Part shown: in pieces, positions 1 through 64,000 of the stretch | How the letters are laid out: every line of letters begins with the position of its first letter | Numbering within the stretch: position 1 is the stretch's first letter | Origin: Chiloscyllium plagiosum | Taxonomy: Eukaryota | Length of the DNA stretch: 64,000 nucleotides | Reading direction: 5' to 3' | Assembly: GCF_004010195.1 (NCBI RefSeq) | Contig: NC_057749.1 | Coordinates: 17,469,308-17,533,307, forward strand | Notes under the pieces: model-generated | Told to the model about the DNA's origin: nothing | The model's database searches: none | The model's input: only the letters and a program-made list of their open reading frames with translations | Position numbers and translations under genes: made by a program

Positions 1-320
1 CTGTCCCCTTGACTTGTCCGGACTTGTCCGACCTGCCCAGCTCCTTTTCCACCTATCCACTCCACCCTCTCCTCCCTGACCTATCACCTTCATCTCCTTC
101 CCCACTGACCTATTGTACTCTATGCCACTCTCTCCCCCCCCCCACCCTCCTCTAGCTTATCTCTCCACGCTTCAGGCTCTCTGCCTTTATTCCTGATGAA
201 GGGCTTTTGCCCGAAATGTCAATTTTGCCTGTCCTCGGATGCTGCCTGAATTGCTGTGCTCTTCCAGCACCACTGATCCAGAATCTGGTTTCCAGCATCT
301 GCAGTCATTGTTTTTACCTC
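1..320 (+). mobile_element. Penelope-like element 3' end/pseudo-LTR with minimal hammerhead motif, in a MYO9A intron
   Basis: CTGATGA-A-GGGC-TTTT-GCCC-GAAATGTC at 193-220, followed by the same tail as the copies at 28267-28359 and 56712-56831. Confidence 0.75.
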
Positions 321-872
321 AGAAATAGACAGTCAGCCTCTCTACTTTAAGCCACAGAAGCTTCTTTATATTAATCAGATGGTGCTGATTCCTGAAGTGC
401 TTGTCATGAATAGCCATATGCAGTAAGCCAACCTTACTTTTTAAGGTCAGGAGAAACATTTCAGCCTGTTAACTTCCTCCTTGGCTTGGGTAACTAAGTA
501 CTTTTGAATGTAAAATTTCCTTGTTATAAAATTAGGCAGATGAGTGTAGCTTACTCCCACTGCCTTCGTGACATATATTGGTGCATAGTGTGTGTGTCGA
601 GTCCAAGCTATCATTGCACACTCCTGTGGAGACCAGCTTTCTGACTGCTGTTACACATTAAGAGTGGCCACATTGTTCACAAGGAAGCACATACTGATCC
701 AGTGAGGATCACTTGACCATTGATTCTGCAAGTTGAAAGGAAGGGTACTTCTAATTTCTTGGCATAAAGGGTTGCCTAGTATTGTCATTTTTAATGCATT
801 TATGTTTCAGTACATGTCTTCCAATATTTGGGTACTGCTGTATATTTTTTAAAAATCATCATTTTTATTTAG

Positions 873-1015
873 GGAGGAGCTGACTTTTGAAATGCTTGCT
901 CTGGAGCCACGAGCCTCTGATGATGAAACCCTTGAATCAGAAGCATCAATTGGAACAGCAGACAGCTTTGAAAATTTAAGCATGGATTCTGAGGGAGCAG
1001 TATCAGAATGTTCTG
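873..1015 (+). CDS. MYO9A: Myosin IXa, penultimate coding exon (EELTFEMLALEPRASDDETLESEASIGTADSFENLSMDSEGAVSECS)
   Basis: Acceptor ttttatttag at 871-872 and donor G|gtaat at 1016. The peptide matches the MYO9A tail as I recall it (ELTFEMLxLEPRASDDETLESEASIGTADS). Its phase-1 end joins in frame to the exon at 5114. Confidence 0.9.
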
Positions 1016-1104
1016 GTAATCGATGCCATTTGTACCTTTTTAAATCTTCCAGCCTGTTAACCTTTCATGCTTTAAAGAAACTCCTTTAATATTTTATTGC
1101 ACCA

Positions 1105-4100
1105 GGAAGGTGAAAGGGCTTTAAACAAAATTGGGGGTGGTCGGGCTGGGCCGAGCTCAGTTATGGAGGTAATTAGAAAACCTGAATTAGAAGAGGAGAT
1201 GAAAGTGCAGAACTCAGGAGAGGTTATTAGAAATTTCCATGACAGACTCGAATAGGACCGAGTGTATGGAAAGGGTTACTAATCAAATGAATGGTAATGA
1301 GACGAGGGATGGTTAATACAGGACTGAAGCTGTTATATCTGAATGCATGCCGTCTAAGGAGTAAGGTAAATAAGCTTGTGCCGCAGATTGAAATTGGCAG
1401 GGCATCATGGAGACGTGGCTGCAAGGAGATCAGGACTGGGAGCTGAATGTTAAAGGATATATATCCTATCTGAAAGATAGGCAGGTGGGCATAGGGGGTG
1501 CCTTATTAGTAAGAAATGAAATTAAATTAATAGTAAGAAATGAAGTAGGATCAGATGCTGTAGAATCTGTGTGGATAGAATTGAGGAAGCACAAACGTGA
1601 AAAAACCATAGTTGGAGTTGTGTACAAGCCTCCAAATAGTAGTCAGAAGAGGGGGCACAAGATGCATCAGGAGATAGAAAAGATGTGTAGGAAAGGCAAG
1701 ATTACAGTGACTTTGGGGGATTTTAATATGCAGGTGGACTAGGAAAATCATTTGGTAGTGGATTGCAAGAAAAATAATTTGTGGAATGTCTATGAAACAA
1801 ATTTTTGGAGCAGCGTGTGGTGTAACCCTTTGGGGAACAGGCAATACTGAATTTAGTGTTGTGTAATGAGGCAGACTTAATAAGGAAGCTTAAGGTGAAG
1901 GAACCCTTAGGAGGCAGTGACCATAACATCATTGAATTTACTCTGCCATTTTAGCGGGAGAAGGTGGAATCAGAGGTAATGGTATTACAGCTGATAAAGG
2001 CAACTACAGAGGAGCTGGGTAGAATTGACTGGGAGAGGAGCCTAACAGGAACAGCAATGGCAGGGGTTTCTGGGAGTAACTCCAGAGATAGCAGCGATTC
2101 ATCCCGAGGAAAAAGCAGCATGGTACTGGGAGGATGAGGCAACCACAGCTGACCAGGGAAGTCAGGGATAGCATAAAAGCAAAAGAGAAAGCATATAATG
2201 TGGCCAATGGGAAACCAGAGGATTGGAAAGCTTACAAAGACCAATCGAGGGCAACAAAAAAAAAGAGGGAGAAGATTAAATATGAAGGTAAGCTCGCCAG
2301 TAATATAAAAAGACTGTAAGACTTTCTTTAGATGTACAAAAGGGCAAAAGAGAGGCAAAGATAGACATTGGACTGCTAGAAAATGACACTGGAAAGATAG
2401 TAATAGGGAACAAGAAAATGGTTGTGTAACTGAATAATTACTTCACATCAGTCTTCATGGTGGAAGACATGAGTAATATACCAAACATTCAGGAGAGTGA
2501 AGGGGCAGAGCTGAGTATGGTGGCCATCAGCAAGGAGAAGCTGCTAGAAAACCTGAATGGCCTGTAGGTGGATAAATCACCTGGACCAGATGGACTACAT
2601 CCCAGAGTTTAAAGGGAGATAGCTAAGGAGATAATGGAAGCATTAGTGGTGATCTTTCAGGAATTGCTAAAATCAGGGACAGTCCCAGAGGACTGGAAAA
2701 TTGGTAATGTGACACCCCTGCTTCAAATGGGAGTAAGGTAAAGATGGAAAATTACAGACTGAGTAGCCTAACCTCAGTTGTGGGTAAGATCCTGAAATCC
2801 ATTGTGAAGGATGAGATTTCTGAATACTTGGAGGTGTATGGCAAAATAGGGCAAAGTCAGCTTGGTTTCAGTAAGGGGGGAGAATGTCTGACAAATCTGC
2901 TAGAATTCTTTGAGGAAGTAACGAGCAGGTTAGACCGAGGAGAGCCAATGGATGTGGTCTGCCTGGACTTCAAGAGGGCCTTTGATAAGGTGCCACATAG
3001 GAGGCTACCGAGTAAGGTCAAGGGCCCATGGGGTTAGAGGCAAGTTGCTAGCATGGATAGAAGCTTGGCTGTCTGGCAGAAAGCAGAGAATGAGGATAAA
3101 AGGGTCTTTTTCAGGATGGCAGCCGGTGACAGGTGGTGTTCCGCAAGACTCAGTGTTGGGATGACAATTTTTCAGATTATAGATTAACGATCTGGATGAA
3201 GAAATTGAGGGCATTCTAGCCAGGTTTGCAGATGAAATCAAGATAGGTAGAGGGACAGATAGCATTGAGGAGGCAGGAAGGCTGCAGAAGGATTTGGACG
3301 GGTTAGGAGAGTGGGCACAGAAGTTGCAGATGGAGTACAACATGGTAAAGCATGAGGTCATGTTCTTTGGTCAGAAGAATAGAAGCATGGACTATGTTCT
3401 CAATGGGGAGAAAATTCAGAAGTCTGAAGTGCAAAGAGACTTGGGAGTGCTAATCCAGGATTCTGTCAAAGTAAACCTGCAGGTTGAATCAGTAGTGAGG
3501 AAGGCAAATGCAATGTTGGCATTTATTTTGCAAGGACTTGAATATAAAAGCAGAGGTGTATTTCTGAGGCTCTCTAATCTCTGGTCAGACCACATTTAGA
3601 GTATTGTGCACAGTTTTGGACCCCATAATCTCATGAAGGATGTACTGGCCCTGGAGTGTGTTCAGAAAAGGTTCACGAGAATGGTCCCAGGTTTGAAAAG
3701 CTTAACAAATGAGGAACATTTCAAGACTCTGGGTTTATACTCGATGGAGTTTAGAAGGTTTGGCTGGGGGCAGGGGGAGCGCGGGGGATCTAATTAAACA
3801 TACAGAATACTGAATGGCCTGGGCAGAGTGGATGTTGGGAAGATGATTCCATTGGTAGGAGAGACTCGGACTCAAGGACACAGTCTTAGAGTAAATGGGA
3901 GACCTTTTAGAATGGAAATAAGGAGAAATTTCTTCAGCCAGAGAGTGGGGAATTAAGTGCCATAGAAGGCTGTGGAGGCCCGATCATGGAGTATATTTAG
4001 GACTGAGATAGGTTCTTGAGGGTCAAGGGTCATGGGGGAAAAGCAGGAGAATGGGGATGAAAATCATATCAGCCACGATCGAATGGCAGAGCAGACTCTA

Positions 4101-4143
4101 TGGGCTGAATGGCCTAACTTCTGCTCCTATGTCTTATGGTCTT
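1105..4143 (+). mobile_element. CR1 LINE, near-complete degenerate ORF2 (APE endonuclease + RT) in the last MYO9A intron
   Basis: ETWLQGDQDWELN, GVVYKPPNS, LGDFN, NYRxxSLTSVVGK, CLTNLLEFFEEVT, LDFKRAFDKVPH and GVPQxSVLG, with stops and frameshifts. CR1-type tail cctatgtcttatggtctt. Confidence 0.93.
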
Positions 4144-9231: not shown

Positions 9232-9812
9232 TATTTGGATTTCCAGAAGGTATTCAACAAGGTGTTACACAAAAGGCTGGTGCATGGCATTCCAGGTAAT
9301 GTATTAGCATGGATAGAGGATTGGTTAACTAACAGAAAGCAATGAGTGGGCGTAAATGGATGTTTTTCTGTTTGGCAATCAGTGGCTAGTGGTGTGCCTC
9401 AGGTATCAGTTTCGGGACTGCAATTGTTTACAATTTATAGAGATGATTTAGGTTGGGGGCCAAGTGTAGTGTGTCAAAGTTCACAGATGACTGTAAGATG
9501 AGTGGTGGAGCAAATTGTGCAGTGGACACAAAGTCTGCAGAGAGATAGTTTGATTGAGTGGGCAAGGGTATGGCAGATGGAGTACAATATTGGTAAATGT
9601 GAGGTGAAACATTCTGGTAGGAGTAACAGCAAAATGAACTTTTATTTAAATGGATAAAAATTGCAGCATTCTGCTGTGCAGAGGCACCAGGGGTCCTTGT
9701 GCATGAATCACAAGTTGGTTTGCAAGTGCAGCAGGTAATTAAGAAGAGAAATGGAATATTGTCCTTCATTGCTAGAGGGATGGAGTTTAAAAACAGGGAG
9801 GTTATGGTGCAG

Positions 9813-10040
9813 ACACAAAAATAGAAATTGCTGGAAAAGCTCAGCAGGTTTGGCAGCAACTGTGAAAAGAAATCAGAGTTAATGTTTTGGGTTGAGTGAC
9901 CCTTCAGAACTGTTCAGAGGAAGGGTCACTCAACCCAAAATATTAACTCTGATTTGTCTCCACAGATGCTGTCAGAGCTGCTGAGCTTTTCCAACAATTG
10001 CTATTTTTGTCTCTGAATTAGAGCATCTGCAGTTCTTTCA
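9813..10040. mobile_element. Palindromic Penelope-derived insertion with 15-bp TSD
   Basis: Inverted arms around ~9905-9915. TSD gaggttatg(g/c)tgcag at 9798-9812 and 10041-10055. Degenerate hammerhead core. Confidence 0.8.
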
Positions 10041-11589
10041 GAGGTTATGCTGCAGCTGTGCAGGATGCTGGTGAGGCCACACCTGGAGTACTGTGTGCAG
10101 TTTTGGTCTCTTTACCTGGGAAAGGATGTGCTGGCACTGAGGAGGTTCACTTGGTTGATTCTGGAGTTTAGGGGGTTGGCTTATGAGGAGTAGGTTGAGG
10201 ACTATGATGATAAGAATTTAGAAGCATGGGATAGGTCTTATAGAAACATATAAAATTATGAAGGGAATCGATGAGCTAGAAGCAAGGGGGTTGTTTCCAC
10301 GGCTGGTGAAACTAGAACCAGGGAGGGGGAAGGTCATAGCTCAAAATAAGGGGCAGCAGGTTTAGGACTGAGCTGAGGAGGAACTTCTTCTTTCGCTTAA
10401 GAGTTGGGAATCTGGAATTCCCTGCCCAGTGAAGCAGTTGAGGCCACCTCGTTGAATGTTTTTACGGCAGAGATTTTTGAGCAGTAAGGAATTCAGGTTA
10501 TGATGAGAGGGTGAATAAGTGGAGCTGAATTCACAAAAACTCAGCCATGATCGTATTGAATTGCAGAGCAGGCTTGGTGGGCCAGATGGCCTATTCCTGT
10601 TCCTAGTTCTTATGTTAAATAATCTCTCCGTTTTACTCACCAGAAGATTGTTTCATTAAATTTGGTTAATTCATAGTACTTCGCACAACAAACTTTGTTC
10701 TTGGAAGTTTGACTTTAGGCAATGGGTTTGCAGGTTGTTTTGACTTTGTGTCAAAGCTGATCCATAATCCAATAGAATAATAAAACGTGGCAAAATATAA
10801 ATGCTGCCATGTATTTAAAAAGAAATAATTCTCCCCATTTATCTCCTGTTTTTCCTGATTGACTTATGTCTGATCTTTGTGATGACTGACCCTTGTGGTG
10901 AAAATTGTTTCTTTGCTCAGTCAAAACTCTTCATGATTTTGCACACCTTTTTAATATCCCCTTCACGCATTAAGTAACACACTTGACCTTTCATTTGACA
11001 TATACTCAAGATTGCCAGTGAAAGCAGAAATGGTCAGAGTTTCCAAAATCTCTGAATGGCCTAGGGCATTGAAGCTAAGTGGCACATTGGTCACTGCTGT
11101 TCTCACTAAGTTGGCAAGCATTTCATATAAGATGAAGAAATTATATGGTTATGATTCAAAAGACTAAAAGAGAGGAATGAGTGGTTCAAATTCATTACAG
11201 CATACAAATTAGGAGCAAGAGTAGCCATTTGGCTGTCTGCCACTTAATAAGATCATGACTGATGTGACTGTATCTTTAAGTCTACTTTTCTATTGCTGAT
11301 ATACTCTCTGACTCCCTTATTAGTCAAATAGCGCTTTCTGGCAAAACGTGCATTTTCTTCATTGAAGGCTGATTGTAGATTGAATTCATTGGGAGGTAGC
11401 AAGGCTGACTGCAGCTGATTGACTCAATTCCCCGAAGTCCACTTCAAGCAGGTTATTTAGCTCAATTTACAGTATGTCTGAAGAGCTTGACAACCTGCCA
11501 AAAACTGAACAATAAAATGGTTCTATGTTTAATACCTTGTTTACACAGAAAAAGATCAGAAGTTTTCAGCTGTAAACAGTGCTAACTCT

Positions 11590-12704: not shown

Positions 12705-13385
12705 AATTCTGTAGAAAGCCCTGAACAGAAATATTTACTTGGGAGGAAGGTGGTTTATTGAAATGGCAAGCAACTGAGAGGTCGGGCTCATTCCTGCAGA
12801 CAGAAACAATGAAACAGTCACCAAGTCTGCCTTTGGTCTTGCCAATGTAAAGGAAACTGTACTGTGAGCAGTGAATGCAGTACACTAGATTGAAAGAAGG
12901 AGAAGTGAAACACTGCTTCAGTTGGAATGCATGTTTAGGGCCTTGGACAGTGAGAAGGGAGGTGGTGAATCGATAAGTGTTACATCTCCTGCAGTTGCAT
13001 GGGAGGGTGTCATGGGGGAATAAGGAAACATTAGGAGTTATTGAGGAGTGCACCAGGGTGTCACGGAAGAATGCTGATGGGGGGGGTGGGGAGGGGAAGA
13101 CACATTTGGTGGTGACCTCCTGCTGGAATTGCCTGAAATGGCAGAAGATGATCCTTTGAATGCAAAGTCTAGGGGCGTGGAAAGTAAGGTCAAGTGGAAT
13201 TCTAACATTGTTCTGAGAAAGATGGGAAAGGTTGATGGTAGAAGTGTAGGAGTTGGATTGGACACAGCTGGAGGTGCTAAGTTGTGGAGTCCTCAGTTCA
13301 GAAAAAAGGTGGTCATGTCAGATACAGCCAGGCTAAAAGTGGTGTCATCAGAATAACTGAGACACAGAAACTGGAAAATGAAATG
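12705..13385 (-). mobile_element. Penelope-like element remnant, linker + GIY-YIG endonuclease
   Basis: The - strand reads PCNCRRCNT...GPK...NLVYCIHCSQYSFLYIGKTKGRLGDCF...VACHFN, i.e. the VY...YIG and Cys/His motifs of PLE GIY-YIG domains. Confidence 0.85.
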
Positions 13386-19729: not shown

Positions 19730-19950
19730 GCAAAATGCTACAGTTGCTGGAAGTTGGAAATTAAGATAGAAAATGCTGACAATGCTTAGCTGGTCTGGCA
19801 GCAGTTGTGGAGAGAGAAAAACAATTAACGTTTCAGGTTGACCTGTCAGAAATGTCTGGCAAGCAGTCATCAATCTGTAACATTAACTGTTTCTCTGTCA
19901 ATAAATTCTGCCAGACTTGCTGATGATATTTCCAGTATTTTCTATTTTAA
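19730..19950. mobile_element. Degenerate palindromic Penelope-derived insertion in NR2E3 intron 5
   Basis: Inverted arms (gctggaa...ggtctggcagca / ctgccagacttgctga...tttccag), the same family as 9813-10040. Confidence 0.65.
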
Positions 19951-28080: not shown

Positions 28081-28125
28081 TAAAACAAAGAGGATCTCTT
28101 CTGAGGTAGGTTCAATCTAACCCGT

Positions 28126-28359
28126 GGTAAAAACAATGAGTGCAGATGCTGGAAACCAGATTCTGGATCAGTGGTGCTGGAAGAGCACAGCAATTCAGGC
28201 AGCATCCGAGGACAGGCAAAATCGATGTTTCGGGCAAAAGCCCTTCATCAGGAATAAAGGCCCTTCCTGATGAAGGGCTTTTGCCCAAAACGTCGATTTT
28301 GCCTGTCCTCGGATGCTGCCTGAATTGCTGTGCTCTTCCAGCACCACTGATCCAGAATC
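28126..28359. mobile_element. Palindromic Penelope pseudo-LTR insertion with two opposed hammerhead motifs and TSD
   Basis: Near-perfect inverted arms. TSD tcaatctaacccgt at 28112-28125 and 28358-28371. Confidence 0.85.
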
Positions 28360-29204
28360 AATCTAACCCGTACTAACCTTTCGGTACAATGAACCTGGGT
28401 GCTCCATGGCGAGAGAAGGGGATAATCGATCAGGTTTCTTACAACTCACCGATGCACATGAATGTTGCTGGGAAAGTCCACTTTGTGGGGATATTGGATT
28501 CAAACAGGATTGAATTGAGTTCTGCTGGTCTCTGTGGTTAAATAGCCTCCTTAGCCCATTAAACAACCTTATATGTGAAGTTTGGTGATGGGGATAAGGT
28601 ACAATACCCGCTGATGCAACAAGCTTTCAGAAGAAGAGGGAAGAAAAACTGAAGGAATAAAGATTTTGTGCGACAAAAACAATTAGTGTGAGGATTAAGT
28701 GAGGATATCCTCAGACGCTCCTCTCTCTTCGGGCTGAGCTTTATACCATATGGTAACGACAGACTCTGCTCTCTGGCAGAGTAATTACTTTGTTGAAGTC
28801 ATTCACTTTTTCTCCGTCTCTCTTTCATAGTGGATTTAGCTTATTACAGACTTACATTCAGATCAGGCTGCCGTGTTACAGAAAGCCAGGCAGCAATGAA
28901 TAGTTCCTTTAGCAAAATGTTGGTCTTGTCCTTTTGTTTGTTCACATATAGATTTGTGCAGAATGAGTTTGTGTGAGGTAGCACCAGGCACCCTCATTCA
29001 AAGATGGTTTTCACCCAATTGGTTTCATTGCTCAGCTGACGGCAGGTTTCGACAAGGGGAGCACAGAGTTTCCTAAAGGTGCTGATTCCTGCTCAGCCAC
29101 CACCTGTCTGAGTTTCACAAAAACATTATTCAGTCATCCTACATTTCCATCCTTTCATAGAATGTGTACGGTGCTGCCTCAGCCATCACTTATATCTCAA
29201 CCTT

Positions 29205-31190: not shown

Positions 31191-31221
31191 GGGATTGTGG
31201 GCTACCATGATGGACAGGTTA

Positions 31222-33161
31222 TGAGACCCGGGCACCGTGTACCAGAGGAGCTGAGACCCGGGCACCGTGTACTAGAGGAGCTCAGACCCGGGCACCGTGT
31301 ACCAGAGGAGCTCAGACTCAGGTACCGTGTACCAGGGGAGCTGAGACCCGGGCACCGTGTACCAGAGGAGCTGAGACCCAGGCACCGTGTACCAGAGGAG
31401 CTGAGACCCAGGCACTGTGTACCAGAGGAGCTGAGACCCGGGCACCATGTACCAGAGGAGCTCAGACCCGGGCACCATGTACCAGAGGAGCTCAGACCCG
31501 GGCACCGTGCACCAGAGGAGCTGAGACCCGTGCATCGTGTACTAGGGAGCTCAGACCCGGGCACCGTGCACCAGAGGAGCTGAGACCCGGGCACCATGTA
31601 CCAGAGGAGCTGAGACCCGGGCACCGTGTACTAGAGGAGCTGAGACCCGGGCACCATGTACCAGAGGAGCTGAGACCCAGGCACCGTGTACCAGAGGAGC
31701 TGAGACCCGGGCACCGTGTACCAGAGGAGCTCAGACCCGGGCACCATGTACCAGAGGAGCTCAGACCCGGGCACCATGTACCAGAGGAGCTCAGACCCGG
31801 GCACCATGTACCAGAGGAGCTCAGACCCGGGCACCATGTACCAGAGGAGCTCAGACCCGGGCACCATGTACCAGAGGAGCTCAGACCCGGGCACCATGTA
31901 CCAGAGGAGCTCAGACCCGGGCACCATGTACCAGAGGAGCTCAGACCCGGGCACCATGTACCAGAGGAGCTCAGACCCGGGCACCATGTACCAGAGGAGC
32001 TCAGACCCGGGCACCATGTACCAGAGGAGCTCAGACCCGGGCACCATGTACCAGAGGAGCTCAGACCCGGGCACCATGTACCAGAGGAGCTCAGACCCGG
32101 GCACCATGTACCAGAGGAGCTCAGACCCGGGCACCATGTACCAGAGGAGCTGAGACCCGGGCACTGTGTACCAGAGGAGCTGAGACCCGGGCACCATGTA
32201 CCAGAGGAGCTCAGGCCCGGGCACCGTGTACCAGAGGAGCTCAGGCCCGGGCACGGTGTACCAGAGGAGCTGAGACCCGGGCACCGTGTACCAGAGGAGC
32301 TGAGACCCGGGCACCGTGTACCAGAGAAGCTGAGACCCAGGCACCGTGTACCAGAGGAGCTGAGACCCGGGCACCGTTTACCAGAGGAGCTCAGGCCCGG
32401 GCACCGTGTACCAGAGGAGCAGAGACCTGGGCACCGTGTACCAGAGGAGCTGAGACCCAGGCACCGTGTACCAGAGGAGCTGAGACCCGGGCACCGTGTA
32501 CCGGGGAGCTCAGACTCAGGTACCGTGTACCAGAGGAGCTGAGACCCGGGCACCGTGTACCGGGGAGCTCAGACCCGGGCACCGTGTACCAGAGGAGCTG
32601 AGACCCAGGCACCGTGTACCAGAGGAGCTGAGACCCGGGCACCGTGTACCAGAGGAGCTGAGACCCGGGCACCGTGTACCAGAGAAGCTGAGACCCGGGC
32701 ACCGTGTACCGGGGAGCTCCGACCCGGGCACCGTGTACCAGAGGAGCTGAGACCCGGGCACCGTGTACCGGGGAGCTCAGACCCGGGCACCGTGTACCGG
32801 GGAGCTCAGACCCGGGCACCGTGTACCGGGGAGCTCTGACCCGGGCACCGTGTACCGGGGAGCTCAGACCCGGGCACCGTGTACCGTGGAGCTCCGACCC
32901 GGGCACCGTGTACCGGGGAGCTCAGACCCGGGCACCGTGTACCGGGGAGCTCAGACCCGGGCACCGTGTACCGTGGAGCTCCGACCCAGGCACCGTGTAC
33001 CGGGGAGCTGAGACCTGGGCACCGTGTACCAGAGGAGCTCCGACCCAGGCACCGTGTACCGGGGAGCTCAGACCCGGGCACCGTGTACCGGGGAGCTTAG
33101 ACCCTGGCACCGTGTACCGGGGAGCTCCGACCCGGGCACCGTGTACCGGGGAGCTCCGACC
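31222..33161. repeat. GC/CpG-rich minisatellite, 30-bp unit (AGACCCGGGCACCRTGTACCAGAGGAGCTS) with a 29-bp variant, about 65 units
   Basis: Direct observation. Homogeneous core ~31730-32150; 29-mers dominate after ~32760. Confidence 0.97.
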
Positions 33162-37434: not shown

Positions 37435-37690
37435 AAATACTGTGGCTGCTGGAAATCTGAAATAAAACAGCGCTGGAGAAATTCAGCAGGTCTGGCAGCA
37501 TCTGTGGAAAGAAAACAGAGTTAATATTTTGGGTTCAAAGATTTTCCTCCGCTGTTTTGAGGAAAGGTCATCCCAGACTTGTAACATTAACTCTGTCCCT
37601 CCACCCCTGTCCCCTCCACCCCTGTGCCCCCCCAACCCCCACAGACGCTGCCAGACCTGCTGAGTTTCTCCAGCATTTTGTTTTTACTTC
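37435..37690. mobile_element. Degenerate palindromic Penelope-derived insertion
   Basis: gctggagaaattcagcaggtctggcagcatctgtgg ... ccacagacgctgccagacctgctgagtttctccagc inverted arms. Confidence 0.75.
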
Positions 37691-38480: not shown

Positions 38481-38542
38481 AAAAATCACACAACACCAGG
38501 TTATAGTCCAACAGGTTTAATTGGAAGCACTAGCTTTCGGAG
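38481..38542 (-). mobile_element. 62-bp Penelope terminal fragment with 10-bp TSD
   Basis: Matches 57318-57381 in reverse. TSD ctttatgtta at 38472-38481 and 38543-38552. Confidence 0.8.
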
Positions 38543-39022: not shown

Positions 39023-39212
39023 TGGAGATCAGAGTCAAAAAGTGTGGTGCTGGAAAAGCCCAGCCAGTCAGGCAGCATCCGAGCAGCAGGAGAGTTGATG
39101 TTTCAGGCATAAGGTCTTCAGGAATTCCTCGGATGCTGCCTGACCTGCTTGGCTTTTCCAGCACCACACATTTTGACTCTGATCTCCAGCATCTGCAGCC
39201 GTCACTGTCTCC
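39023..39212. mobile_element. Palindromic Penelope-derived insertion with TSD
   Basis: Inverted arms; TSD tataattgga at 39017-39026 and 39213-39222. Confidence 0.8.
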
Positions 39213-50062: not shown

Positions 50063-51170
50063 CTGATGCAAAATACTCGTTTAGTATCTCTCCCATCTCC
50101 TGCGGCTCCACACAAAGGCTGCCTTGCTGATTTTTGAGGGGCCCTATTCTCTCCCTAGTTACCCTTTTGGCCTTAATGTATTTGTAAAAACCCTTTGGAT
50201 TCTCCTTAATTCTATTTGCCAAAGCTATCTCGTGTCCCCTTTTTGCCCTCCTGACTTCCCTCTTAAGTGTATTCCTACTGCCTTTATACTCTTCTAAGGA
50301 TTCACTCGATCTATCCTGTCTGTACCTTACTTCTTTTACTTAACAAAACCCTCAATTTCTTTAGTCATCCAGCATTCCCTATTCCTACCAGCCTTCCCTT
50401 TCACCCTAACAGGAATATACTTTCTCTGGANNNNNNNNNNNNNNNNNNNNNNNNNNNNNNNNNNNNNNNNNNNNNNNNNNNNNNNNNNNNNNNNNNNNNN
50501 NNNNNNNNNNNNNNNNNNNNNNNNNNNNNNNNNNNNNNNNNNNNNNNNNNNNNNNNNNNNNNNNNNNNNNNNNAAAGTTAAAATCCCCTACCATAACTAC
50601 CCTATTATTCTTACAGATAGCGGAGGTCTCCTTACAAGTTTGTTTCTCAATTTCCCTCTGACTATTGGGGGGTCTATAATACAATCCCAGTAAGGTGATC
50701 ATCCCCTTCTTATTTCTCAGTTCCCCCCAAATAACTTCCCTGGATGTATTTCTGGGTATATCCTCCCTCAGCACAGCTGTAATGCTATCCCTTATCAAAA
50801 ATGCCACTCCTCCTCCTCTCTTGCCTCCCTTTCTATCCTTCCTGTAGCATTTATATCCTGGAATATTAAGCTGCCAGTCCTGCCCATCCCTGAGCCATGT
50901 TTCTGTAATTGCTATGATATCCCAGTCCCATGTTCCTAACCATGCCCTGAGTTCATCTGCCTTCCCTGTTAGGCCCCTTGCATTGAAATAAATGCAGTTT
51001 AATTTATTAGTCCTACCTTGTCCCTGCCTGCCCTGACTGTTTGACTCTCTTCTGTTCTCAACTGTACCAGTCTCAGATTGACCTCTTTCCCCACTATCTC
51101 CCTGGGTCCCACATTCCCACCTCTTCCCCGCCCCCCCCCCCCACACACACCTGGCCTTACTAGTTTGATC
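50056..51170 (-). mobile_element. CR1 LINE ORF2 5' half, well-preserved APE endonuclease
   Basis: CIYFNARGLTGKADEL...AITETWL...YRKDRKGGKRGGGVAFLI...YYRPPNS...MVGDFNF, then ANRIKENPKGFYKYI...ILNEYFASVFT. Confidence 0.93.
50431..50573. other. Assembly gap (143 N) inside the CR1
   Basis: Run of N. Confidence 1.
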
Positions 51171-52454
51171 CCTCCATGTGGATCTTGCTGGTTAGACCAC
51201 TGCCAAAAGATAGTTTACCTTAGTCCTCCATAGATTGGGACATGGACGGGTGGGGGGAGTGTGGGACATGGAATGGCTTACCCCTGCACTTTTAGCACTG
51301 GCCTTTATTGTGATGAATGTACTAGTGCTCATGTAGCAAACAGGGAATAGGAGAATATAAGTGTCACATGGGAATGACTCCCCCTCCCAGTACCACATCA
51401 CCCACTGATAGCAACATGCTGATAAAAGAGTATTACACTTACCAATCAGATTGAGAGGGAATCAGTTCCATCTCCCTATGCTGCCCCGAGATCTTGCATT
51501 TGCTGTGTGAATTGTGGTCCCTTCTGTTTCACTGAGATGTCTAACTAAAATTTGGAAGGTCCAGTGATGACAGGGGCAATGTTGTTTGTGACCAGTGTTA
51601 GCACATCACTCAGTTATATGCCTGCAAGCAACGCACACGCAAAATGAAATGGTTATAAATAATTGGGCAACCTGCACTTTTCCGTGTAACAGAACAAGAG
51701 TTCCATGGCTGGCCTCACAAAGCCTTAGGGGTGTTGGAGAGTGATTAAGGCAGTACAAGAGAATGTATCTGTGCCAAACTGGAATCGCCTGGCTTTTATG
51801 AGCTAGTCCTCACTGGATTCTCCGAAATAGTTGGTGAAATTAGCACCGTGAGAAGGGAAAAAGGAAAGCATCACTAGGAAACTTGTTCATCCATTGGGAA
51901 AAATCTTACCCAGAGTAGATGCACACACAGATTCCTAAAAACCCTAAAAACTAGTGGTCAACATTTTACCAATCCTTACAAACAGAAAACACTCTTTTCC
52001 GAATTCAACAGATCAATTCTTAATAAATTTCACAGATCTGCTTTCTCTGAGCCTTTTCCCTGCAGAAACACATATAATTATCATGGGAGTTTCAGCCACC
52101 AACATGGAGCTCATGTTCTGGTGAGTACAATGAAGAGGCGAATGGTGAGGCAGATATTCAACCTGACTCCATTCCTGAATATCACTCTTTAACCTCTACC
52201 CTCTGACATTTGAACTATCCAGGGTGGTGAATCAATTCCCAGCCTCCTCTATACATCGAAATACATTGACCTAAACCCCAAAATCCAATGACAGCAGGTT
52301 TCCAAAATGAATAGCAGAAAGATGTTGAAAACTGGCCATATTTCAAGTGATAGCTGTTTTGTAGAATGCCTTAAATACACTTGTTGGAGAACCAAACCAT
52401 TACCTGTTTCGATTGGTTTCCTCTCTAACCTTAAAAATACTTCAGTATATAGAA

Positions 52455-52722: not shown

Positions 52723-52779
52723 TGTTTATGTTTTGTGGGTAATCACATAGCCCAGAATTGTACTGAGCTGGAGTGACTG

Positions 52780-54160
52780 GACAGTTTCAGGTTTGTACTG
52801 AGGTGGGGGGAAGGGACTGTCTCAGGTTTGTACTGAGGTGTTTGTGCTGAGGTGGAGGGAGGGGACAGTCTCAGGTTTGTACTGAGATGGGGGTAGGGAC
52901 TGTCTCAGGTTTGTGCTGAGGTGGAGGGAGGGGACAGTCTCAGGTTTGTACTGAGATGGGGGTAGGGACTGTCTCAGGTTTGTGCTGAGGTGGAGGGAGG
53001 GGACAGTCTCAGGTTTGTACTGAGATGGGGGTAGGGACTGTCTCAGGTTTGTGCTGAGGTGGAGGGAGGGGACAGTCTCAGGTTTGTACTGAGATGGGGG
53101 TAGGGACTGTCTCAGGTTTGTGCTGAGGTGGAGGGAGGGGACAGTCTCAGGTTTGTACTGAGATGGGGGTAGGGACTGTCTCAGGTTTGTGCTGAGGTGG
53201 AGGGAGGGGACAGTCTCAGGTTTGTACTGAGATGGGGGTAGGGACTGTCTCAGGTTTGTGCTGAGGTGGAGGGAGGGGACAGTCTCAGGTTTGTACTGAG
53301 ATGGGGGTAGGGACTGTCTCAGGTTTGTGCTGAGGTGGAGGGAGGGGACAGTCTCAGGTTTGTACTGAGATGGGGGTAGGGACTGTCTCAGGTTTGTGCT
53401 GAGGTGGAGGGAGGGGACAGTCTCAGGTTTGTACTGAGATGGGGGTAGGGACTGTCTCAGGTTTGTGCTGAGGTGGAGGGAGGGGACAGTCTCAGGTTTG
53501 TACTGAGATGGGGGTAGGGACTGTCTCAGGTTTGTGCTGAGGTGGAGGGAGGGGACAGTCTCAGGTTTGTACTGAGATGGGGGTAGGGACTGTCTCAGGT
53601 TTGTGCTGAGGTGGAGGGAGGGGACAGTCTCAGGTTTGTACTGAGATGGGGGTAGGGACTGTCTCAGGTTTGTGCTGAGGTGGAGGGAGGGGACAGTCTC
53701 AGGTTTGTACTGAGATGGGGGTAGGGACTGTCTCAGGTTTGTGCTGAGGTGGAGGGAGGGGACAGTCTCAGGTTTGTACTGAGATGGGGGTAGGGACTGT
53801 CTCAGGTTTGTGCTGAGGTGGAGGGAGGGGACAGTCTCAGGTTTGTACTGAGATGGGGGTAGGGACTGTCTCAGGTTTGTGCTGAGGTGGAAGGGAGGGG
53901 CAGTCTGAGGTTTGTACTGAGATGGGGGTAGGGACTGTCTCAGGTTTGTGCTGAGGTGGAGGGAGGGGACAGTCTCAGGTTTGTACTGAGATGGGGGTAG
54001 GGACTGTCTCAGGTTTGTGCTGAGGTGGAGGGAGGGGACAGTCTCAGGTTTGTACTGAGATGGGGGTAGGGACTGTCTCAGGTTTGTGCTGAGGTGGAGG
54101 GAGGGGACAGTCTCAGGTGTTGTGCTGAGGTCGGGGGAGGGGACTGTCTCAGGTGTTGTG
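52780..54160. repeat. G-rich tandem array: 69-bp higher-order unit made of 35- and 34-bp subunits, about 19-20 units
   Basis: GTCTCAGGTTTGTGCTGAGGTGGAGGGAGGGGACA + GTCTCAGGTTTGTACTGAGATGGGGGTAGGGACT. Period checked: ggggacagtc at 52861 and 52930. Confidence 0.97.
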
Positions 54161-54463
54161 CCTGGGTTGGGGTCAAAAAACGGATTGCACCAAGGCAGCA
54201 GCTGGCAGGGTCAGATATAACCTCTGACCTCGGTGGTGAAGGAGGGACAAATGGGGGAGCACACTCCTTTCTGATGGTAAGCCAAGAAGTCCTGTACACA
54301 TGGGTATGTCATTGAGAACAGCATGGGGCTCTAGTGTAATGTCTCCTAAACATCAATGTTGATCATCAGTTCTCGAACAGTGCCTGAAGAATGCTCACTT
54401 TGGTAAGTCAGAACTCACACAACTCAGAAATCACAAGGTGTCAGAGCAATGCCCCTTTTTTCG

Positions 54464-54565
54464 ACTCCGAAAGCTCGTGATCTCAAATAAACCTGTTGGA
54501 CTATAATCTGATGTTGTGTGAGTTCTGACCTTGTCCACTCCAGTCCAGCACTGGCACCTCCACAC
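54464..54565 (+). mobile_element. Penelope terminal fragment starting inside the hammerhead stem II
   Basis: ctccgaaagctcgtg...aaacctgttggactataa, homologous to 57318-57410. Confidence 0.7.
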
Positions 54566-56711: not shown

Positions 56712-56831
56712 AAGGGCTTTTGCCCGAAACGTCGATTTTACTGCTCCTCGGATGCTGCCTGAACTGCTGTGCTCTTCCAGCACCACTAATCCAGAATCTG
56801 GTTTCCAGCATCTGCAGTCATTGTTTTTACC
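56712..56831 (+). mobile_element. Penelope terminal fragment (same family as 1-320), truncated within the hammerhead
   Basis: Starts at aagggcttttgcccgaaacgtcg; the tail closely matches 200-318. Confidence 0.8.
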
Positions 56832-56919: not shown

Positions 56920-57410
56920 GACAATGCTGTCACTTTGCAGAATTATATTTTATTTTGCTCAAAACATGCATAACCTACAGTCAATCCATGTCAGATTCTG
57001 TAAATCCCACTTTAGAAATAGAACTATTTCTGACTCAAGACAGGGACACAGACAGACTTTAACCTCACACCTTTAATACGTTGTCTGAGCTGTGATGCCC
57101 CTATTGTTAGAAAAACTGAAGTTATCTTGAGAATATGACTTAAAAGGAGTTCTGGGATTTACATATTAATGAACTGACACTAGAAAAACCATTCTAAAAG
57201 ATAAAAGACATAATCTAAGTTTGTTTGATGTATTTCAGTTGCATGACACTGTAACCCTTTGCTATAAATTCTGTATCCTATGGTCCTGCTCCACAACCAC
57301 CTGATGAAGGGGCAGTGCTCCGAAAGCTAGTGCTTCCAAACAAACCTGTTGGATTATAGGCTGGTGTGTGTGATTTTTAACTTTGTTCACCCCAGTCCAT
57401 CACCGTCTCA
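56920..57410 (+). mobile_element. Penelope-like 3' region with an intact minimal hammerhead at 57298-57332
   Basis: Homologous in reverse to 63266-63950; CTGATGA-A-GGGGC-AGT-GCTCC-GAAAG-CTA. Confidence 0.75.
57298..57332 (+). ncRNA. Minimal type I hammerhead ribozyme motif
   Basis: Stem I CAC/GTG, core CUGAUGA, extra A, stem II GGGGC/GCUCC, GAAA, palindromic AGCU helix III, predicted cleavage after CUA. Confidence 0.65.
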
Positions 57411-57417
57411 TCTGAAT

Positions 57418-58147: not shown

Positions 58148-58171
58148 GTAACCTGTCTCCTGAGGGTATGT

Positions 58172-58344
58172 CTTTGAGGAGAAAGTGAGGTCTGCAGATG
58201 CTGGAGATCAGAGATGGAAATGTGTTGCTGGAAAAGCGCAGCAGGTCAGGCAGCATCTAGGGAACAGGAGAATCGACGTTTCGGGCTAATCCTGTTCCCT
58301 AGATGCTGCCTGACCTGCTGCGCTTTTCCAGCAACACATTTCCA
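58172..58344. mobile_element. Palindromic Penelope-derived insertion with 16-bp TSD
   Basis: TSD tctcctgagggtatgt at 58156-58171 and 58345-58360. The inversion point is at gacgtttcgggc (hammerhead stem II). Confidence 0.85.
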
Positions 58345-58925
58345 TCTCCTGAGGGTATGTGTATGTCTCCTGTGATTCGTTTATTTCACTGTGGAACCAA
58401 CAGGATCTGCAACTCGATTTCTCATGGCCATTTGGTCAGTTTTGACACTGTTTGGCTGATCAAACTATTAAACAAGCAGGGAAGGTGATGCCACAATCTC
58501 CACCAATAGGCAATCCTGACTGAAGTCGTGTTGAGATTTCCTGTTAAGCAGTTCAGTGGGTCTGATACTGCAACATTGCACTGTCTGCAGCACATCCATT
58601 AACACTGAAACATCAGCAACAAATCCCACCCTTGGACAAGGCACTATATCTGTGCAATAGAGCTGGTAATATAGAGCTTTGACAAAGGGTCAGTTAGACA
58701 TGAAACGTCAGCTCTTTTCTCTCCTTACAGATGCTGGCAGACCTGCTGAGATTTTCCAGCATTTTCTCTTTTGGTAATATCCTAATTGGATTATAGACTC
58801 ATGTTTGTCTATCATCTTTTCTGTCAAAGGTTTCAGTCTTATTGTGCTCTGGTGCATTTCCTATCTGATTGGGGTCAGTTTCACACTTATCACCTTGAGA
58901 AACCCCCGGAAGTTGGATATTGCTT

Positions 58926-60178: not shown

Positions 60179-61440
60179 TTTTCACACAAGGACAGTCCCA
60201 GTGAGGAACAAACTGCCTAAGGAATAATCCCAGCCCATCATTGGAACCCTTCAAGACTGGGCATGCAGAGGTTGGGCTGTGTTTTGGCAATATTTCCATG
60301 GCTTTCATCTGCTGAAGATTTTTCAGATTGTGTGCCTTTATCTTGGGCTATTCTGCCACTTCACAGCGAATGAGGGAATGACTCTTTGAAAAGGCACTGC
60401 CTTCATCTGCTCAGGTATGGGAGTCAAGTCCTACAGATCGAATGGATGGTCTCTGCTAGCTATTTCAAAATGGCTGCAACGTGATGAAACGGGCTGGGTT
60501 TGGGGCTGGGGGTGATGGTGGGGTACAGCTGATTGTGGTAATGAGCCCCTGTGCTATCCTCTTGTTAGGAAGATATAATGCATGGAGTGTCTGTGTTCAT
60601 GAATGGATCCGAGACCCTGGGTTCACACCTCTCACGGCAGTTTGAGAATTTCAGCTCAGTTTAATAAAGCTGGAAATAAAAAGAATGCAATATGAGTAAA
60701 AGTGACTGTAAAACTGTCAAAAAAACCCATAAAAATTTCAAAAAGTGACCACAAAACTGTCAGACTGTTGTTAGAAAATAAACCTGCTTAATCTGGTCTG
60801 GAGATACATCATTCACAATCATTGAGTTTTGAGTCAGTTAATATTAGCCTCTTTAATATGAATGCACTGAATTTTGAGACTTGTATAAATGACTGTGTGT
60901 CTTGCTTTGTACATACTGACTGACTGAGCTGCCTGCTGTGGTGGGCTCCTCTTCCCCATTGTATTGGTCCTGAGTCCAGTGGTACCTATTGGCCTCAAAT
61001 CTGCGTCAGAACCTCACCAGAAATTGGGCAGGAGTTAGTTTTGTCAAGTGTCGTAGTGAGTGTCTCTCTCTGGGGCCTGGTGAGTTTTCTATGTAATTGT
61101 TCCAAACTCAATCATTAACTATGCCACACGCCTCATGACCCATGCCCTATGATGCTCCCGCCCACCCATCCAATGGACATCTGGTCTTCTGACCACCCAC
61201 CTCCCCCCACAATCACCCCGCACCCAACCCTGTACTCGCTGAAACCAGATGTATTCCCACCTTCCGAGAGGGAATGCTCAATGCTCAATGCCCAGGGGGA
61301 AGTGGCAAATAAGGGAATGTCTGTGCCCCACTTTACACACAGGGACCTGGAGGTCATGTTGGGCACTCAGATATGGAGGAGGCTCATTCTCATCCTACCC
61401 TCCAGGACTGACAGAGGAGACCATGACAGCACCCCCTGCC

Positions 61441-61640
61441 AGCCTGGGTCAGAGGTTGGCAGCTTGGGTCAGAGGTTGCCAGTCTGGGTCAAAGGTTACC
61501 AGCCTGGATCAAAGGTTGCCAGCCTGGGTCAGGGATTGGCAGCCTGGGTCAGAGGTTGCCAGCCTGGGTCGGAGGTTGGCAGCCTGGGTCAGAGGTTGCT
61601 AGTCTGGTTCAAAGGTTACCAATCTGGATCAGGGGTTGGC
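61441..61640. repeat. 20-bp minisatellite (AGCCTGGGTCAGAGGTTGSC) x10
   Basis: Direct observation. Confidence 0.92.
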
Positions 61641-62404
61641 AGTGTGGGCAGTATGATCTCCGGTATCTGGATGAATGGCCACCACTCAGGATGAGAATTC
61701 TCTGTGCTCTTCAATGACCTGCTCCTCCACCAGGGTAAGTGCAGCCACCTTTTCTCCAATAACTCACCCTGTCTCCATCTCTGCTCCTGTACCCACCTCC
61801 CACCAAGGCCCAGGCTTACCCCCCTCACCATTGCCAGCACCATCTTCCCTTGCTTACTGTCACTGTGCCCCCACACACACCACTACCCCTGCATGTCCTC
61901 TCTGCCCTGCCTACTCCCTCCCCTCCCCCTGCTTCCTCTCCTTTCCTAGTGGGGAGCAGCTGAGCTCCCAGTGGGACAGGACAAGTGAGATTGTTGGTGG
62001 TGTCTCTGACATTCTGCTCCCCAATGCAGACAGCACTGGCCTGGACTGACATTGGAGGCTGTTGGTAACTCTGTCCCAGGAGCCACTGACTGAAGCCTGG
62101 TGCCCTTGGCTTGGTTTAGGATCACTCCCTGAGCCCTGGCTCCCTGTTTGCTGCTCCCGTGGGGGGTTTGCTGTGGGAGTGGGGGACAGTGATGTGGCAC
62201 ACTGCCGGATTGAAAGGTGCCCACCCCCTGAGCTGGTGATCACTGACCAGCTTAACCAGCTGCCTGGGTCTGTGTCTGTGTCTGTGTCACACTACACAGC
62301 CACGGGGAAGGGGGCTGTCAGTCTGTTAGCTCTGGCTGAGGGAGGGAGGTGTGGGAAGGTGAAGAAAGGTGAAGGAGGGATGCTGTAGGAGTCTGAGTAG
62401 GTTC

Positions 62405-62630
62405 AGGGTGAGAGAGGGAGGGAGGGTGTGAGGGAGTGTGAGAGGGAGTGAGGGAGTGTGTAAGGGTGGGAGTGGGTGTGAGAGAGGGATTGAGTGAGGG
62501 AGGGAGTGGGTGTGTGAGGGGGGATTGGGTGTGTGAGGGAGGGATTGGGTGTGTGTTGAGGGAGTGGGTAGGTGTGTGAGTGAGGGAGGGAGTGGGAGAG
62601 TGAGTGAGGGATTGAGTGAGTGAGTGAGTG
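62405..62630. repeat. Low-complexity (GAGT/GAGG/GT) tract
   Basis: Direct observation. Confidence 0.85.
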
Positions 62631-63480
62631 CTGAAAGAGCAGGTGAGGAGCAGTGAGATGCAACCTGGTCCAATCCAGGAGCTGATGTGACTCTGTGTGC
62701 AGTGTTCCTATAGCAGCACTCCGAGAAAGGCAGGGCCACATGGAGAGTGAGTGAGGGAGTGGGCAGGAAGGGGATTGTGACGTGTTCCTGATGATGTAGT
62801 GAGGCTGCTCTGAGCTGGATGCCAATGCCCGTGAACATGGGGTATGAACGATGCCCACATTCCCCACTCCCTTCATGGGGTATGTCCTGAGACGTTGGTG
62901 TTAGGTGTCCAAGGTAGAGAGAGCTGGAGGAGCGGGCAGTGAGTAGGAGTCACTGGGTAAGCTGCTCAGACTTCCACATCAGGAATTCTGAGAGTCTGGT
63001 TTCTCTCCAGGGTGGGAGAATGGGAAGGTGCATTAGCGTGAAGTAAGATTAATTAATAATGAGAGTAACAGTCAGTGATTAATCCCCATTAATTGACTCT
63101 CACCTACTGAAAATCCTGTCTGTGGGAGTTGGTTGAAAAATGCAAGGTTCCAGTCACAATGTTGAGAAAGACCTCATTGGGCACCATGCCTGATTTTCCC
63201 ACATCATTTGGGAGGTTGGGAAGTTGGAATGTTATTCACCAGAAGAGCTACAGATATTCCTGACTTAAAAATCACGCAACACAGGTTATAGTCCAACAGC
63301 TTTGTTTGGAAGCACTAGCTTTCGGAGCGCTGCTCCATCAGGTGATTGTGGAGAATAAGATTGTAAGACACAGAATTTATAGCAAATATTTACGGTGTGA
63401 TGCAACTGAAATCATACATTGAAAAAGACCCGGATTGTTTGTTAAGTCTCTCATCTTTTAAATTGGGCATGTTGGTTTCA

Positions 63481-63686
63481 GGAGAAAGTGAGGTCTGCAG
63501 ATGCTGGAGATCAAAGTTGAAACTTTATTGCTGGAACAGCACAGCAGGTCAGGCAGCATCCAGGGAACAGGAGATTCGACGTTTCGGGCACAGGCCCTTC
63601 CTGAAGAAGGGCCTGTGCCCGAAACGTCGAATCTCCTGTTCCCTGGATGCTGCCTGACCTGCTGTGCTGTTCCAGCAATAAAGTTT
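63481..63686. mobile_element. Young palindromic Penelope-derived insertion with 14-bp TSD
   Basis: Near-perfect inverted arms; TSD catgttggtttcag at 63468-63481 and 63687-63700. Confidence 0.87.
63598..63631 (+). ncRNA. Minimal type I hammerhead ribozyme motif
   Basis: Stem I TTC/GAA, core CUGAAGA, extra A, stem II GGGC/GCCC, GAAAC-GUC with palindromic ACGU helix III. Confidence 0.65.
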
Positions 63687-64000
63687 CATGTTGGTTTCAG
63701 TCCTTTCATATGTAAATCGCAGAACTTTCTTAAAGTTACATTCTCAAGTGAACTTTAACAATAGGTGCCATGTCGGCCCAGATAATGCATTGAAGGTGTG
63801 AGGTGCCCTGTGTGAGGCTGTCAGTGCCCCAATGTTCAGACTGATCTTATTTCTAAAAAAAAGGGATTTACAGAATCTTACATGGATTCATGCAGTTTCT
63901 GAGCAAAATAAAATGTAATTCTGCAAGTACAAATTCACCCCACAAACTTATGTGTGTGTGTGTGTGTGTGTGCATGTGTGGATGTGTGTATAAAATGGTA

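Follow-up and report, generated by a model that had tools for sequence, protein, structure and literature searches.

Penelope-like elements with predicted hammerhead ribozymes

The closest described relatives of the elements treated here are the canonical endonuclease-positive (EN+) Penelope-like elements (PLEs) of the Penelope/Poseidon/Neptune type. In two earlier accounts, PLE insertions are characterized by strong 5′ truncation, an inverted 5′-truncated copy beside the upstream pseudo-long terminal repeat (pseudo-LTR), a hammerhead in the pseudo-LTR, a tail of 30-40 bp at one end only and short target-site duplications (TSDs) (PMC8557442, PMC3846280). The protein of an Anolis PLE cuts and extends both target strands in vitro, with reverse transcription starting at two adjacent internal sites of the RNA; the interval between the two start sites is the tail, and unprocessed RNA is the substrate (PMC11167929). 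A related group of short ribozyme-bearing repeats are the retrozymes, for which a 2026 preprint sampled one chondrichthyan (Li, Clavereau & Pollet). The subject of the present analysis is a set of short repeats with hammerhead motifs in the shark Chiloscyllium plagiosum, found in a stretch of 64,000 nucleotides (contig NC_057749.1, positions 17,469,308 to 17,533,307, forward strand), hereafter referred to as the window.

A first-pass annotation of the window had described these repeats as a dispersed system of Penelope mini-elements. The listed intervals are very likely the insertion products of several shark PLE families, with the short pieces being PLE 3′ modules left by ordinary integration. 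The five published features of PLE insertions named above are all found in the shark elements. Ribozyme-bearing PLEs, tails and inverted arms have already been described, and what is added here are new shark families of a known class. The literature searches found no publication describing these families; for the whale shark, the genome paper does no more than name Penelope as one of the long interspersed nuclear elements (LINEs).

The likeness to canonical EN+ PLEs extends to the open reading frame (ORF) of the longer copies, which encodes a reverse transcriptase (RT) together with a GIY-YIG domain at its C-terminus. It also covers the pseudo-LTR with its hammerhead, the strong 5′ truncation, the adjacent inverted 5′-truncated copy, the tail of 30-40 nt at one end only and the variable length of the TSDs. 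Furthermore, sequence beyond the tail in tandem copies (locus L091) fits reverse transcription being initiated internally. In contrast to canonical EN+ PLEs, most shark copies consist of no more than two partial arms of the pseudo-LTR, each 60-130 nt long. Unlike that of the Anolis PLE, the shark ORF does not start inside hammerhead stem II, as the ATG frame there stops after 17 codons (read by eye).

Repeat families and copy number

Self-BLAST of the 64-kb window shows that all 14 listed intervals are true repeats, each matching at least one other interval. They represent 13 insertions, with an A2 element (63482-63688) nested in a family B copy, in agreement with the annotated picture of short dispersed repeats inserted about 13 times in 64 kb. 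The elements sort into at least four families, where at least three had been proposed. Group A1 comprises 1-320, 28126-28359 and 56712-56831; group A2 comprises 58172-58344 and 63481-63686; group A3 consists of 39023-39212; and a more distant A4-like group contains 9813-10040, 19730-19950, 37435-37690 and 58678-58772. Group B, which is unrelated to the A groups, contains 38481-38542, 54464-54565, 56920-57410 and the interval from 63266 to the window end. Most window copies are cut down to the last 60-320 nt of a PLE. Although all annotated intervals are repeats, the boundaries of two had to be revised: 1-320 is only the end of a longer copy, and 63266-63950 extends to the window end.

A2 is the youngest family, with tens of thousands of near-identical copies. 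Its exact 36-nt hammerhead occurs 11,888 times (5,960 + 5,928) in the 3.56 Gb genome, against 0 for the reversed control. This near-invariance of the largest shark family is closer to the recent invasion of D. virilis than to the high variability that is usual among metazoan PLE hammerheads (PMC4209133). The A1 family has at least 47 genomic matches at 96-100% identity (40 scored of 271 first-look candidates), and first-look candidates number 5,050 for family B (about 88-91% identity) and 3,256 for A4 (about 87-90% identity).

Continuity with Penelope-like coding sequence

In the four families followed genome-wide (A1, A2, A4 and B), longer copies extend upstream into RT/GIY-YIG coding sequence, which in A1 lies directly upstream of the pseudo-LTR of about 280 nt. 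Two A1 loci (L015 and L020) encode the C-terminus of a GIY-YIG endonuclease with 77% identity over 86 residues to P0001, a Chiloscyllium punctatum protein according to its source; P0001 is also the best database relative of the L020 fragment (91% identity). Weak Pfam matches are seen in P0001, P0008 and P0018, to RVT_1 at E 7e-8 and to GIY-YIG at E 2.5e-4, the latter slightly below the cut-off. Searches by tblastn with PLE proteins place ORF pieces beside A1 at many loci, beside A2 at L091, beside A4 at L069, L074 and L081, and beside B at L037, L053 and L055, and at L106 the end of the ORF precedes an A2 arm. The listed window copies carry no ORF, and PLE ORF sequence in the window is limited to a remnant at 12709-13251. 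The short arms of A1 are 97-100% identical to the ends of ORF-linked copies, and in 20 sampled places no sequence difference is visible between short and long copies of A2 across the module that they share.

Architecture of the insertions

Each arm consists of the 3′ part of the pseudo-LTR that holds the hammerhead. Arms have one of two possible 3′ ends, which are separated by 29-36 nt and lie about 60-100 nt downstream of the cleavage site. The stretch between these two ends constitutes the tail, with a length of 36 nt for A1, 31 nt for A2 and 29 nt for the A4-like pair at 9813-10040. In many insertions two arms are paired head to head, and exactly one of them then carries the tail (7/7 window pairs and 8/8 sampled A2 pairs elsewhere). 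The order in 30 fetched A1 loci is TSD, inverted arm, variable middle, direct arm and TSD, with the inverted arm always ending about 36 nt short of the end of the direct arm. The first 100 A2 hammerheads listed include 13 pairs in -/+ order spaced within 300 bp and none in +/- order, and 20 A2 places taken in list order hold eight short single arms, eight pairs, three long copies and one of intermediate length. The junction sequences differ in all eight sampled A2 pairs, showing that pairs form anew at each insertion and ruling out a replication of the hairpins as units.

TSDs of at least 9 bp flank 7 of the 12 tested window elements (9-16 bp), and the six of 10-16 bp among them equal the number given in the first-pass annotation. 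In a control, such a direct repeat was found for 21 of 300 random position pairs, mostly in simple repeats. The TSDs of the A2 sample measure 7-17 bp. With longer copies that join an RT/GIY-YIG ORF, a tail on one arm, an inverted arm and TSDs of variable length, the annotated assignment of the elements to PLEs is supported.

The two arms of A1 pairs differ from each other in a systematic manner. Position 1.1, just after the cleavage site, is A in 30/30 direct (tailed) arms and G in 10/12 inverted (tail-less) arms; the inverted arms also differ at a second position (4/4 arms) and at two further positions (2/2 arms). These fixed differences rule out a snap-back (self-priming) origin of the A1 pairs. 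The two arms of one A1 insertion were probably copied from different templates. The simplest candidates would be both copies of the pseudo-LTR within a tandem transcript, with two RNAs as the other option. The older A1 window copies 28126-28359 and 56712-56831 have G in the tailed arm, which indicates that A is the derived state. Such arm-specific fixed differences within the pairs of one family may be new.

A comparable structure is known from LINE-1, where both target strands prime complementary DNA (cDNA) during twin priming and an inverted 5′ part results (5′ inversion), the inverted part being derived from a region upstream of the direct part. In the shark pairs, on the other hand, the two arms are copies of one and the same 3′ module, with a separate fixed start site for each arm.

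Two further A2 arrangements were observed outside the window. A complex insertion within a satellite of about 21 bp (L091, G000:C1:16162600-16166300) contains three same-strand hammerhead units 224-320 bp apart. About 80 nt after its tail are present twice in identical form, in tandem arrangement, and the RNA thus continues beyond the tail; this post-tail sequence was unmatched to an ORF start using the available proteins, which are N-terminally truncated models. L092 and L093, 24 Mb apart on one contig, contain the same A2 pair with the same left flank, a likeness that suggests segmental duplication.

The hammerhead motif

The hammerhead is laid out as CUGANGA, one extra nucleotide, helix II, GAAA, a 4-nt palindrome replacing helix III, a nucleotide other than G at position 17 and a helix I of 2-5 bp. 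The families share the core C3-A9 (CUGANGA), G12-A14, A15.1-U16.1 and non-G17, with ACGU or AGCU as the palindrome. This core, the extra nucleotide, the ACGU/AGCU palindrome and the lack of a loop 3 agree with the annotated designation as a minimal hammerhead of type I in which helix III is palindromic. The motifs are regarded here as predicted ribozymes, recognized by sequence and fold. They resemble the minimal hammerhead ribozymes (min-HHRs) of metazoan PLEs in their core boxes, the G10.1-C11.1 pair, the palindromic 15.2-16.2 positions without loop 3, the short helix I, the dual motifs on opposite strands and the occurrence of several covarying families per genome (PMC4209133). All four features which that study found in addition to its own search descriptor are shared, among them the covarying families, the G10.1-C11.1 pair and the palindromic 15.2-16.2. 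Helix II has 4-5 bp in four shark families and 6-7 bp in a fifth, compared to 7-8 bp in Schistosoma (PMC4209133).

A loose pattern (CTGANGA..GAAA) is found 13 times in the window against 6.6 expected, and 0 of 100 shuffles contain at least 13. A strict descriptor, which combines the core boxes, 0-1 extra nucleotide, a helix II of 4-7 bp, GAAA, paired 15.2-16.2, U16.1, non-G at 17 and a helix I of at least 3 bp, gives 48 matches in the 359,703 nt that the window and the fetched loci comprise together, whereas not one is found in any of 20 shuffles. Within the window, the strict matches are only those at 57298-57338 and 63598-63638 (2/48). Hammerhead sequence, whole or partial, is present in 17 window arms, whose sequences were read by eye; it is intact in two, and mutated or truncated in the remaining 15, where the damage includes small deletions, G12>A and a change of ACGT to ATGT or ACAT. 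A covariance model built from the A and A4 families detects 12 sites in the window (E ≤ 0.012), every one of them within a listed interval. It has no match to the family B hammerhead in the window, and therefore serves as a homology detector only and not as an independent validation.

The helix pairs of the families were tabulated by script, since the MAFFT alignment had shifted family B by one column. The five families keep the hammerhead core and differ in helices I and II, which nevertheless stay paired; copies within a family are near-identical and uninformative in this respect. In A1 and A2, helix I is (A)UUC/GAA(U), helix II is GGGC/GCCC, the palindrome is ACGU and position 17 is C. The corresponding elements are CAC/GUG, GGAGC/GCUCC, AGCU and A in family B, and GUU/AAC, GGGUC/GACCU, ACGU and U in A4, most copies of which have lost the CpG sites within the motif. 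The fifth family (L057, L045 and L050) has CCA/UGG, GUUACCU/AGGUAAU, ACGU and C. Between 9 and 10.1, four families have A as the extra nucleotide, whereas the fifth has U, and the 10.1-11.1 pair is G-C in four families and G.U in the fifth. The earlier claim of compensatory stem variation is upheld insofar as stems I and II differ between families and remain paired, but the change from GGGC-TTTT-GCCC to GGGC-CTGT-GCCC, offered as an example, affects only the loop and is not a covariation. Members of the fifth family, with a helix II of 6-7 bp and U as the extra nucleotide, are located at L057:318(+), L057:158(-), L057:2518(-), L045:1869(-) and L050:2913(+).

For a long A2 copy, the minimum-energy fold predicted by ViennaRNA consists of exactly helix I and helix II. 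The window A2 copy is predicted to fold preferentially into a competing hairpin formed from the junction palindrome.

Arm 5′ ends and the route of integration

The 5′ ends of the A2 arms are not evenly distributed. In 16 of the 20 sampled places, the arm starts 0-6 nt upstream of C3. Across the genome, exact A2 20-mers are counted 23,508 times for +55..+74 from C3, 18,198 times for +28..+47, 17,299 times for +16..+35 (across the cleavage site, with two CpGs), 13,467 times for 0..+19 and 5,866 times for -13..+7; these counts are approximate, since loop variants escape the 0..+19 probe, which covers loop II, and mutated copies escape every probe. From the differences between the counts, about 7,600 arms end within the 13 nt before C3 (about 585 per nt), about 3,800 between 0 and +16, and at most about 900 between +17 and +28, with about a quarter of the arms reaching upstream of the hammerhead (5,866 versus 23,508). 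By these counts, arm 5′ ends peak where the hammerhead begins, at its 5′ edge, whereas the cleavage site shows no such peak. Because of this peak, the hammerhead-to-tail module (about 90-125 nt) forms a discrete length class. The arms in which the hammerhead core is joined to downstream sequence were copied from uncleaved or religated RNA, which agrees with unprocessed RNA being the substrate (PMC11167929).

TATA-like words are located 33-38 nt upstream of C3 in 7/8 long copies from four families, among them TATAAA in B and, in one A4 copy, TATAA. The accumulation of arm 5′ ends at the 5′ edge of the hammerhead instead of its cleavage site, with a TATA-like box about 30-35 nt upstream, may be new. 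In the integration route considered here, which is modelled on the in vitro work on the Anolis PLE, the PLE endonuclease would cut both target strands, the two free 3′ ends would prime reverse transcription at two internal start sites of the RNA, and the two short cDNAs would then be joined. The 5′-end peak would correspond to the RNA's own 5′ end, with transcription starting about 30-35 nt downstream of the TATA-like box of the pseudo-LTR.

Such a transcription start is favoured by inference, and the main alternative, likewise inferred, is that the pile-up marks a stop of the RT at the folded or dimeric, protein-bound hammerhead module, yielding abortive cDNA. This is a real possibility, albeit one that we consider somewhat improbable. 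The protein-binding RNA segment of the Anolis PLE spans the region from the hammerhead to the RT start sites (PMC11167929), and additional ends lie inside the hammerhead, both in the window (38482, 54464 and 56712) and among the A2 arms that end between 0 and +16. However, for an enzyme that travels 3′ to 5′ along the RNA, a stall would be expected at the entry to the fold and not beyond its exit, and the fixed upstream distance of the TATA-like words in the long copies of four families fits a transcription start.

A more far-reaching and doubtful proposal is that the hammerhead-to-tail module serves the PLE transcript as a kind of terminal redundancy. Transcription starting at the first nucleotide of helix I would place the module at both ends of the RNA, and the palindromic helix III would let the two module copies pair. 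A dimeric enzyme could then prime cDNA from both target strands, one per module copy, at different start sites. If true, this would explain the one-tail rule, the 5′-end peak, the differences between the A1 arms and the need for tandem copies for activity. It would also give the "weak" dimeric hammerhead a structural role in pairing, replacing or beside cleavage.

Transcripts were sought in raw RNA data. Mapping to one single-cell poly(A) run yielded 536 reads on both strands, 88% of which run into unrelated sequence, and a second run yielded 0 reads. The reads show only that copies are present in transcripts.

Separately from the main 5′-end peak, the arms at 38482 and 54464 (B) and at 58268-58306 (A2-like) begin near-identically, in the 3′ strand of helix II. 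This shared position may be a second, smaller preferred 5′ end.

Counter-evidence and alternative origins

A number of observations weigh against the assignment of the short elements to hammerhead-bearing PLEs, or against the details of the proposed route. The PLE ORF was read in pieces, with no element seen from end to end, and the RT domain was found only in fragments and in database homologues. Only two hammerheads in window arms are intact, and helix I of A1 has only 1-2 bp. Rfam hammerhead models, which had been suggested as a check, give zero matches in the window, either at the gathering score or at E ≤ 10, and formal membership of the hammerhead family thereby depends on a hand-made descriptor. 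This miss is expected, because the motif is without the helix III that Rfam hammerhead models include. The predicted monomer folds of 2/3 copies tested are not hammerheads (ViennaRNA), and on cofolding the canonical dimer is not the minimum-energy form. With respect to the 5′ ends, the k-mer counts are affected by subfamily differences and mutation, leaving the densities approximate; the long A4 copy L074 has its TATA-like word at -49 instead of -33 to -38; and the 536 reads show no pile-up of read ends, which a single-cell poly(A) library shows poorly.

A PLE origin of the short units as ordinary integration products also has to be compared with the interpretation given in the first-pass annotation, in which they are non-autonomous, retrozyme-like units mobilized by PLE machinery. 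On this view they would form an independent lineage, similar to retrozymes or short interspersed nuclear elements, with master copies of its own and mobilization in trans by PLE proteins. The discrete length class with arm 5′ ends peaking at the hammerhead 5′ edge, the very high copy number and the three same-strand A2 units of L091 would fit such a lineage. According to earlier work, pseudo-LTR sequences are sufficient for trans-mobilization (PMC3846280), and animal retrozymes are derived from PLE pseudo-LTRs (Li, Clavereau & Pollet, 2026 preprint). The shark units share with animal non-LTR retrozymes (Cervera & de la Pena 2020; Li, Clavereau & Pollet, 2026 preprint) their short, ORF-less form, the type I hammerhead and the relation to PLE pseudo-LTRs. 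Retrozymes are however arranged as head-to-tail tandem arrays processed to circular RNA, whereas the shark units are dispersed, single or head-to-head, and flanked by TSDs. Furthermore, the shark units were copied from RNA that was not cut at the hammerhead. No head-to-tail tandem hammerhead array is found in the window, and elsewhere there is one three-unit same-strand cluster (L091). No diagnostic difference is visible between short and long A2 copies in the 20 sampled places, the short A1 arms match the ends of ORF-linked copies, the pairs were not copied as units, as shown by the differing junctions of all eight sampled ones, and about a quarter of the arms extend upstream of the hammerhead. 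An independent lineage is therefore quite unlikely. The notion of non-autonomous, retrozyme-like mini-elements is for the most part not supported, given the longer copies running into an RT/GIY-YIG ORF, the differing junctions and a window without head-to-tail arrays, but it survives in a weaker form, in that the hammerhead-to-tail module is a discrete length class.

Finally, an identity of the hairpin-shaped elements as miniature inverted-repeat transposable elements (MITEs) or microRNA-like hairpin genes, to which their TSD-flanked inverted-repeat shape and the below-threshold matches of 58216-58341 and 28216-28303 to the Rfam families mir-2007, mir-722 and mir-1253 (50.5 bits, where the gathering score is 103) might point, is highly improbable and already contradicted, since the TSDs vary from 7 to 17 bp, the arms are unequal and variable in length with a tail on one arm alone, single-arm copies exist, longer copies enter the RT/GIY-YIG ORF, and every Rfam microRNA match lies far below its gathering score. 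Fixed-length TSDs and symmetrical terminal inverted repeats, by which MITEs are recognized, are not seen in the elements of the window and the A2 sample. The microRNA and small nucleolar RNA look-alikes that Rfam returns below threshold at E ≤ 10 are caused by the hairpin shape.

Implications

A very young and abundant family such as A2 provides a natural, genome-scale record of PLE integration products. This record agrees with what the in vitro work had shown, in that both target strands are primed, two internal sites of the RNA are used, and uncleaved RNA is the template. Three testable regularities emerge from it: pairs have a single tail, 5′ ends gather at the hammerhead edge instead of the cleavage site, and there are arm-specific variants. 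These bear on the purpose of the PLE hammerhead and on how the ends of PLE RNA are defined. In genome annotation, these hairpins can pass for MITEs or microRNA precursors; Penelope is the class under which they should be masked.

Elements in the window

The A1 family is represented by three elements. At 1-320 (+) lies the 3′ end of a longer PLE copy, the rest of which is located upstream of the window. This 3′ end includes a pseudo-LTR, a hammerhead at 193-231 and a 36-nt tail at 285-320; its hammerhead has ACGT>ATGT in helix III and A at position 1.1. The head-to-head pair at 28126-28359 has a tailed left arm (-) and a tail-less right arm (+), and is flanked by the TSD AATCTAACCCGT at 28114-28125 and 28360-28371. 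One of its arms has ACAT in helix III, and the other has G12>A (28262-28301). A single arm with a tail at 56712-56831 (+) has its 5′ end within the hammerhead and no clear TSD.

In the A2 group, the A2-like head-to-head pair at 58172-58344 has its tail on the left arm and a 16-bp TSD (58156-58171 and 58345-58360), and both arms are truncated within or after the hammerhead; its hairpin shape accounts for the sub-threshold mir-1253 match. The second A2 pair, at 63482-63688, is nested head-to-head in a B copy; its left arm (-) has a 31-nt tail, its right arm (+) is tail-less and contains the intact min-HHR at 63598-63638, and its TSD is TGTTGGTTTCAG. The A3 head-to-head pair at 39027-39212 has the tail on its right arm, a 10-bp TSD TATAATTGGA and a broken hammerhead stem II.

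The A4-like elements are more decayed. At 9813-10040, a head-to-head pair consists of a tail-less left arm (-) and a right arm (+) with a 29-nt tail, both with decayed hammerheads, between TSDs of 15 bp with one mismatch (9798-9812 and 10041-10055). The head-to-head pair at 19730-19950 is old and decayed, and no TSD was recovered for it; the decayed head-to-head pair at 37435-37690 has the tail on its left arm. A single arm at 58673-58771 (+) starts a few nt upstream of a degenerate hammerhead and has a 9-bp TSD TGGTAATAT.

Family B is present as a tail-less single arm at 38482-38542 (-), with its 5′ end within hammerhead stem II and a 10-bp TSD CTTTATGTTA, and as a single arm at 54464-54565 (+), the 5′ end of which also lies within stem II. 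A third copy at 56920-57410 (+) is 5′-truncated about 370 nt upstream of an intact min-HHR (57298-57338; CAC/GTG, GGGGC-AGT-GCTCC, AGCT and A17). The long, tail-less copy at 63266-64000 (-), which is interrupted by the A2 pair and reaches the window end, has a 2-nt deletion in the hammerhead core.

The PLE ORF remnant at 12709-13251 (-) was absent from the list of the first-pass annotation. It was detected by tblastn with PLE proteins (45% identity over 190 amino acids, E 1e-34), and no hammerhead was found adjoining it.

Other sequences in the window

Two minisatellites are present, at 31224-33161 (30-bp unit, 65 copies) and 52840-54161 (69-bp unit, 19 copies). The long ORFs at 31211-32539 and 52822-54207 were rejected as genes, being translated minisatellites with spurious Pfam matches. 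A frame with an Exo_endo_phos domain (E 2e-14) at 50406-51188 (-), adjoining a run of N at 50431-50573, is probably a LINE endonuclease interrupted by an assembly gap.

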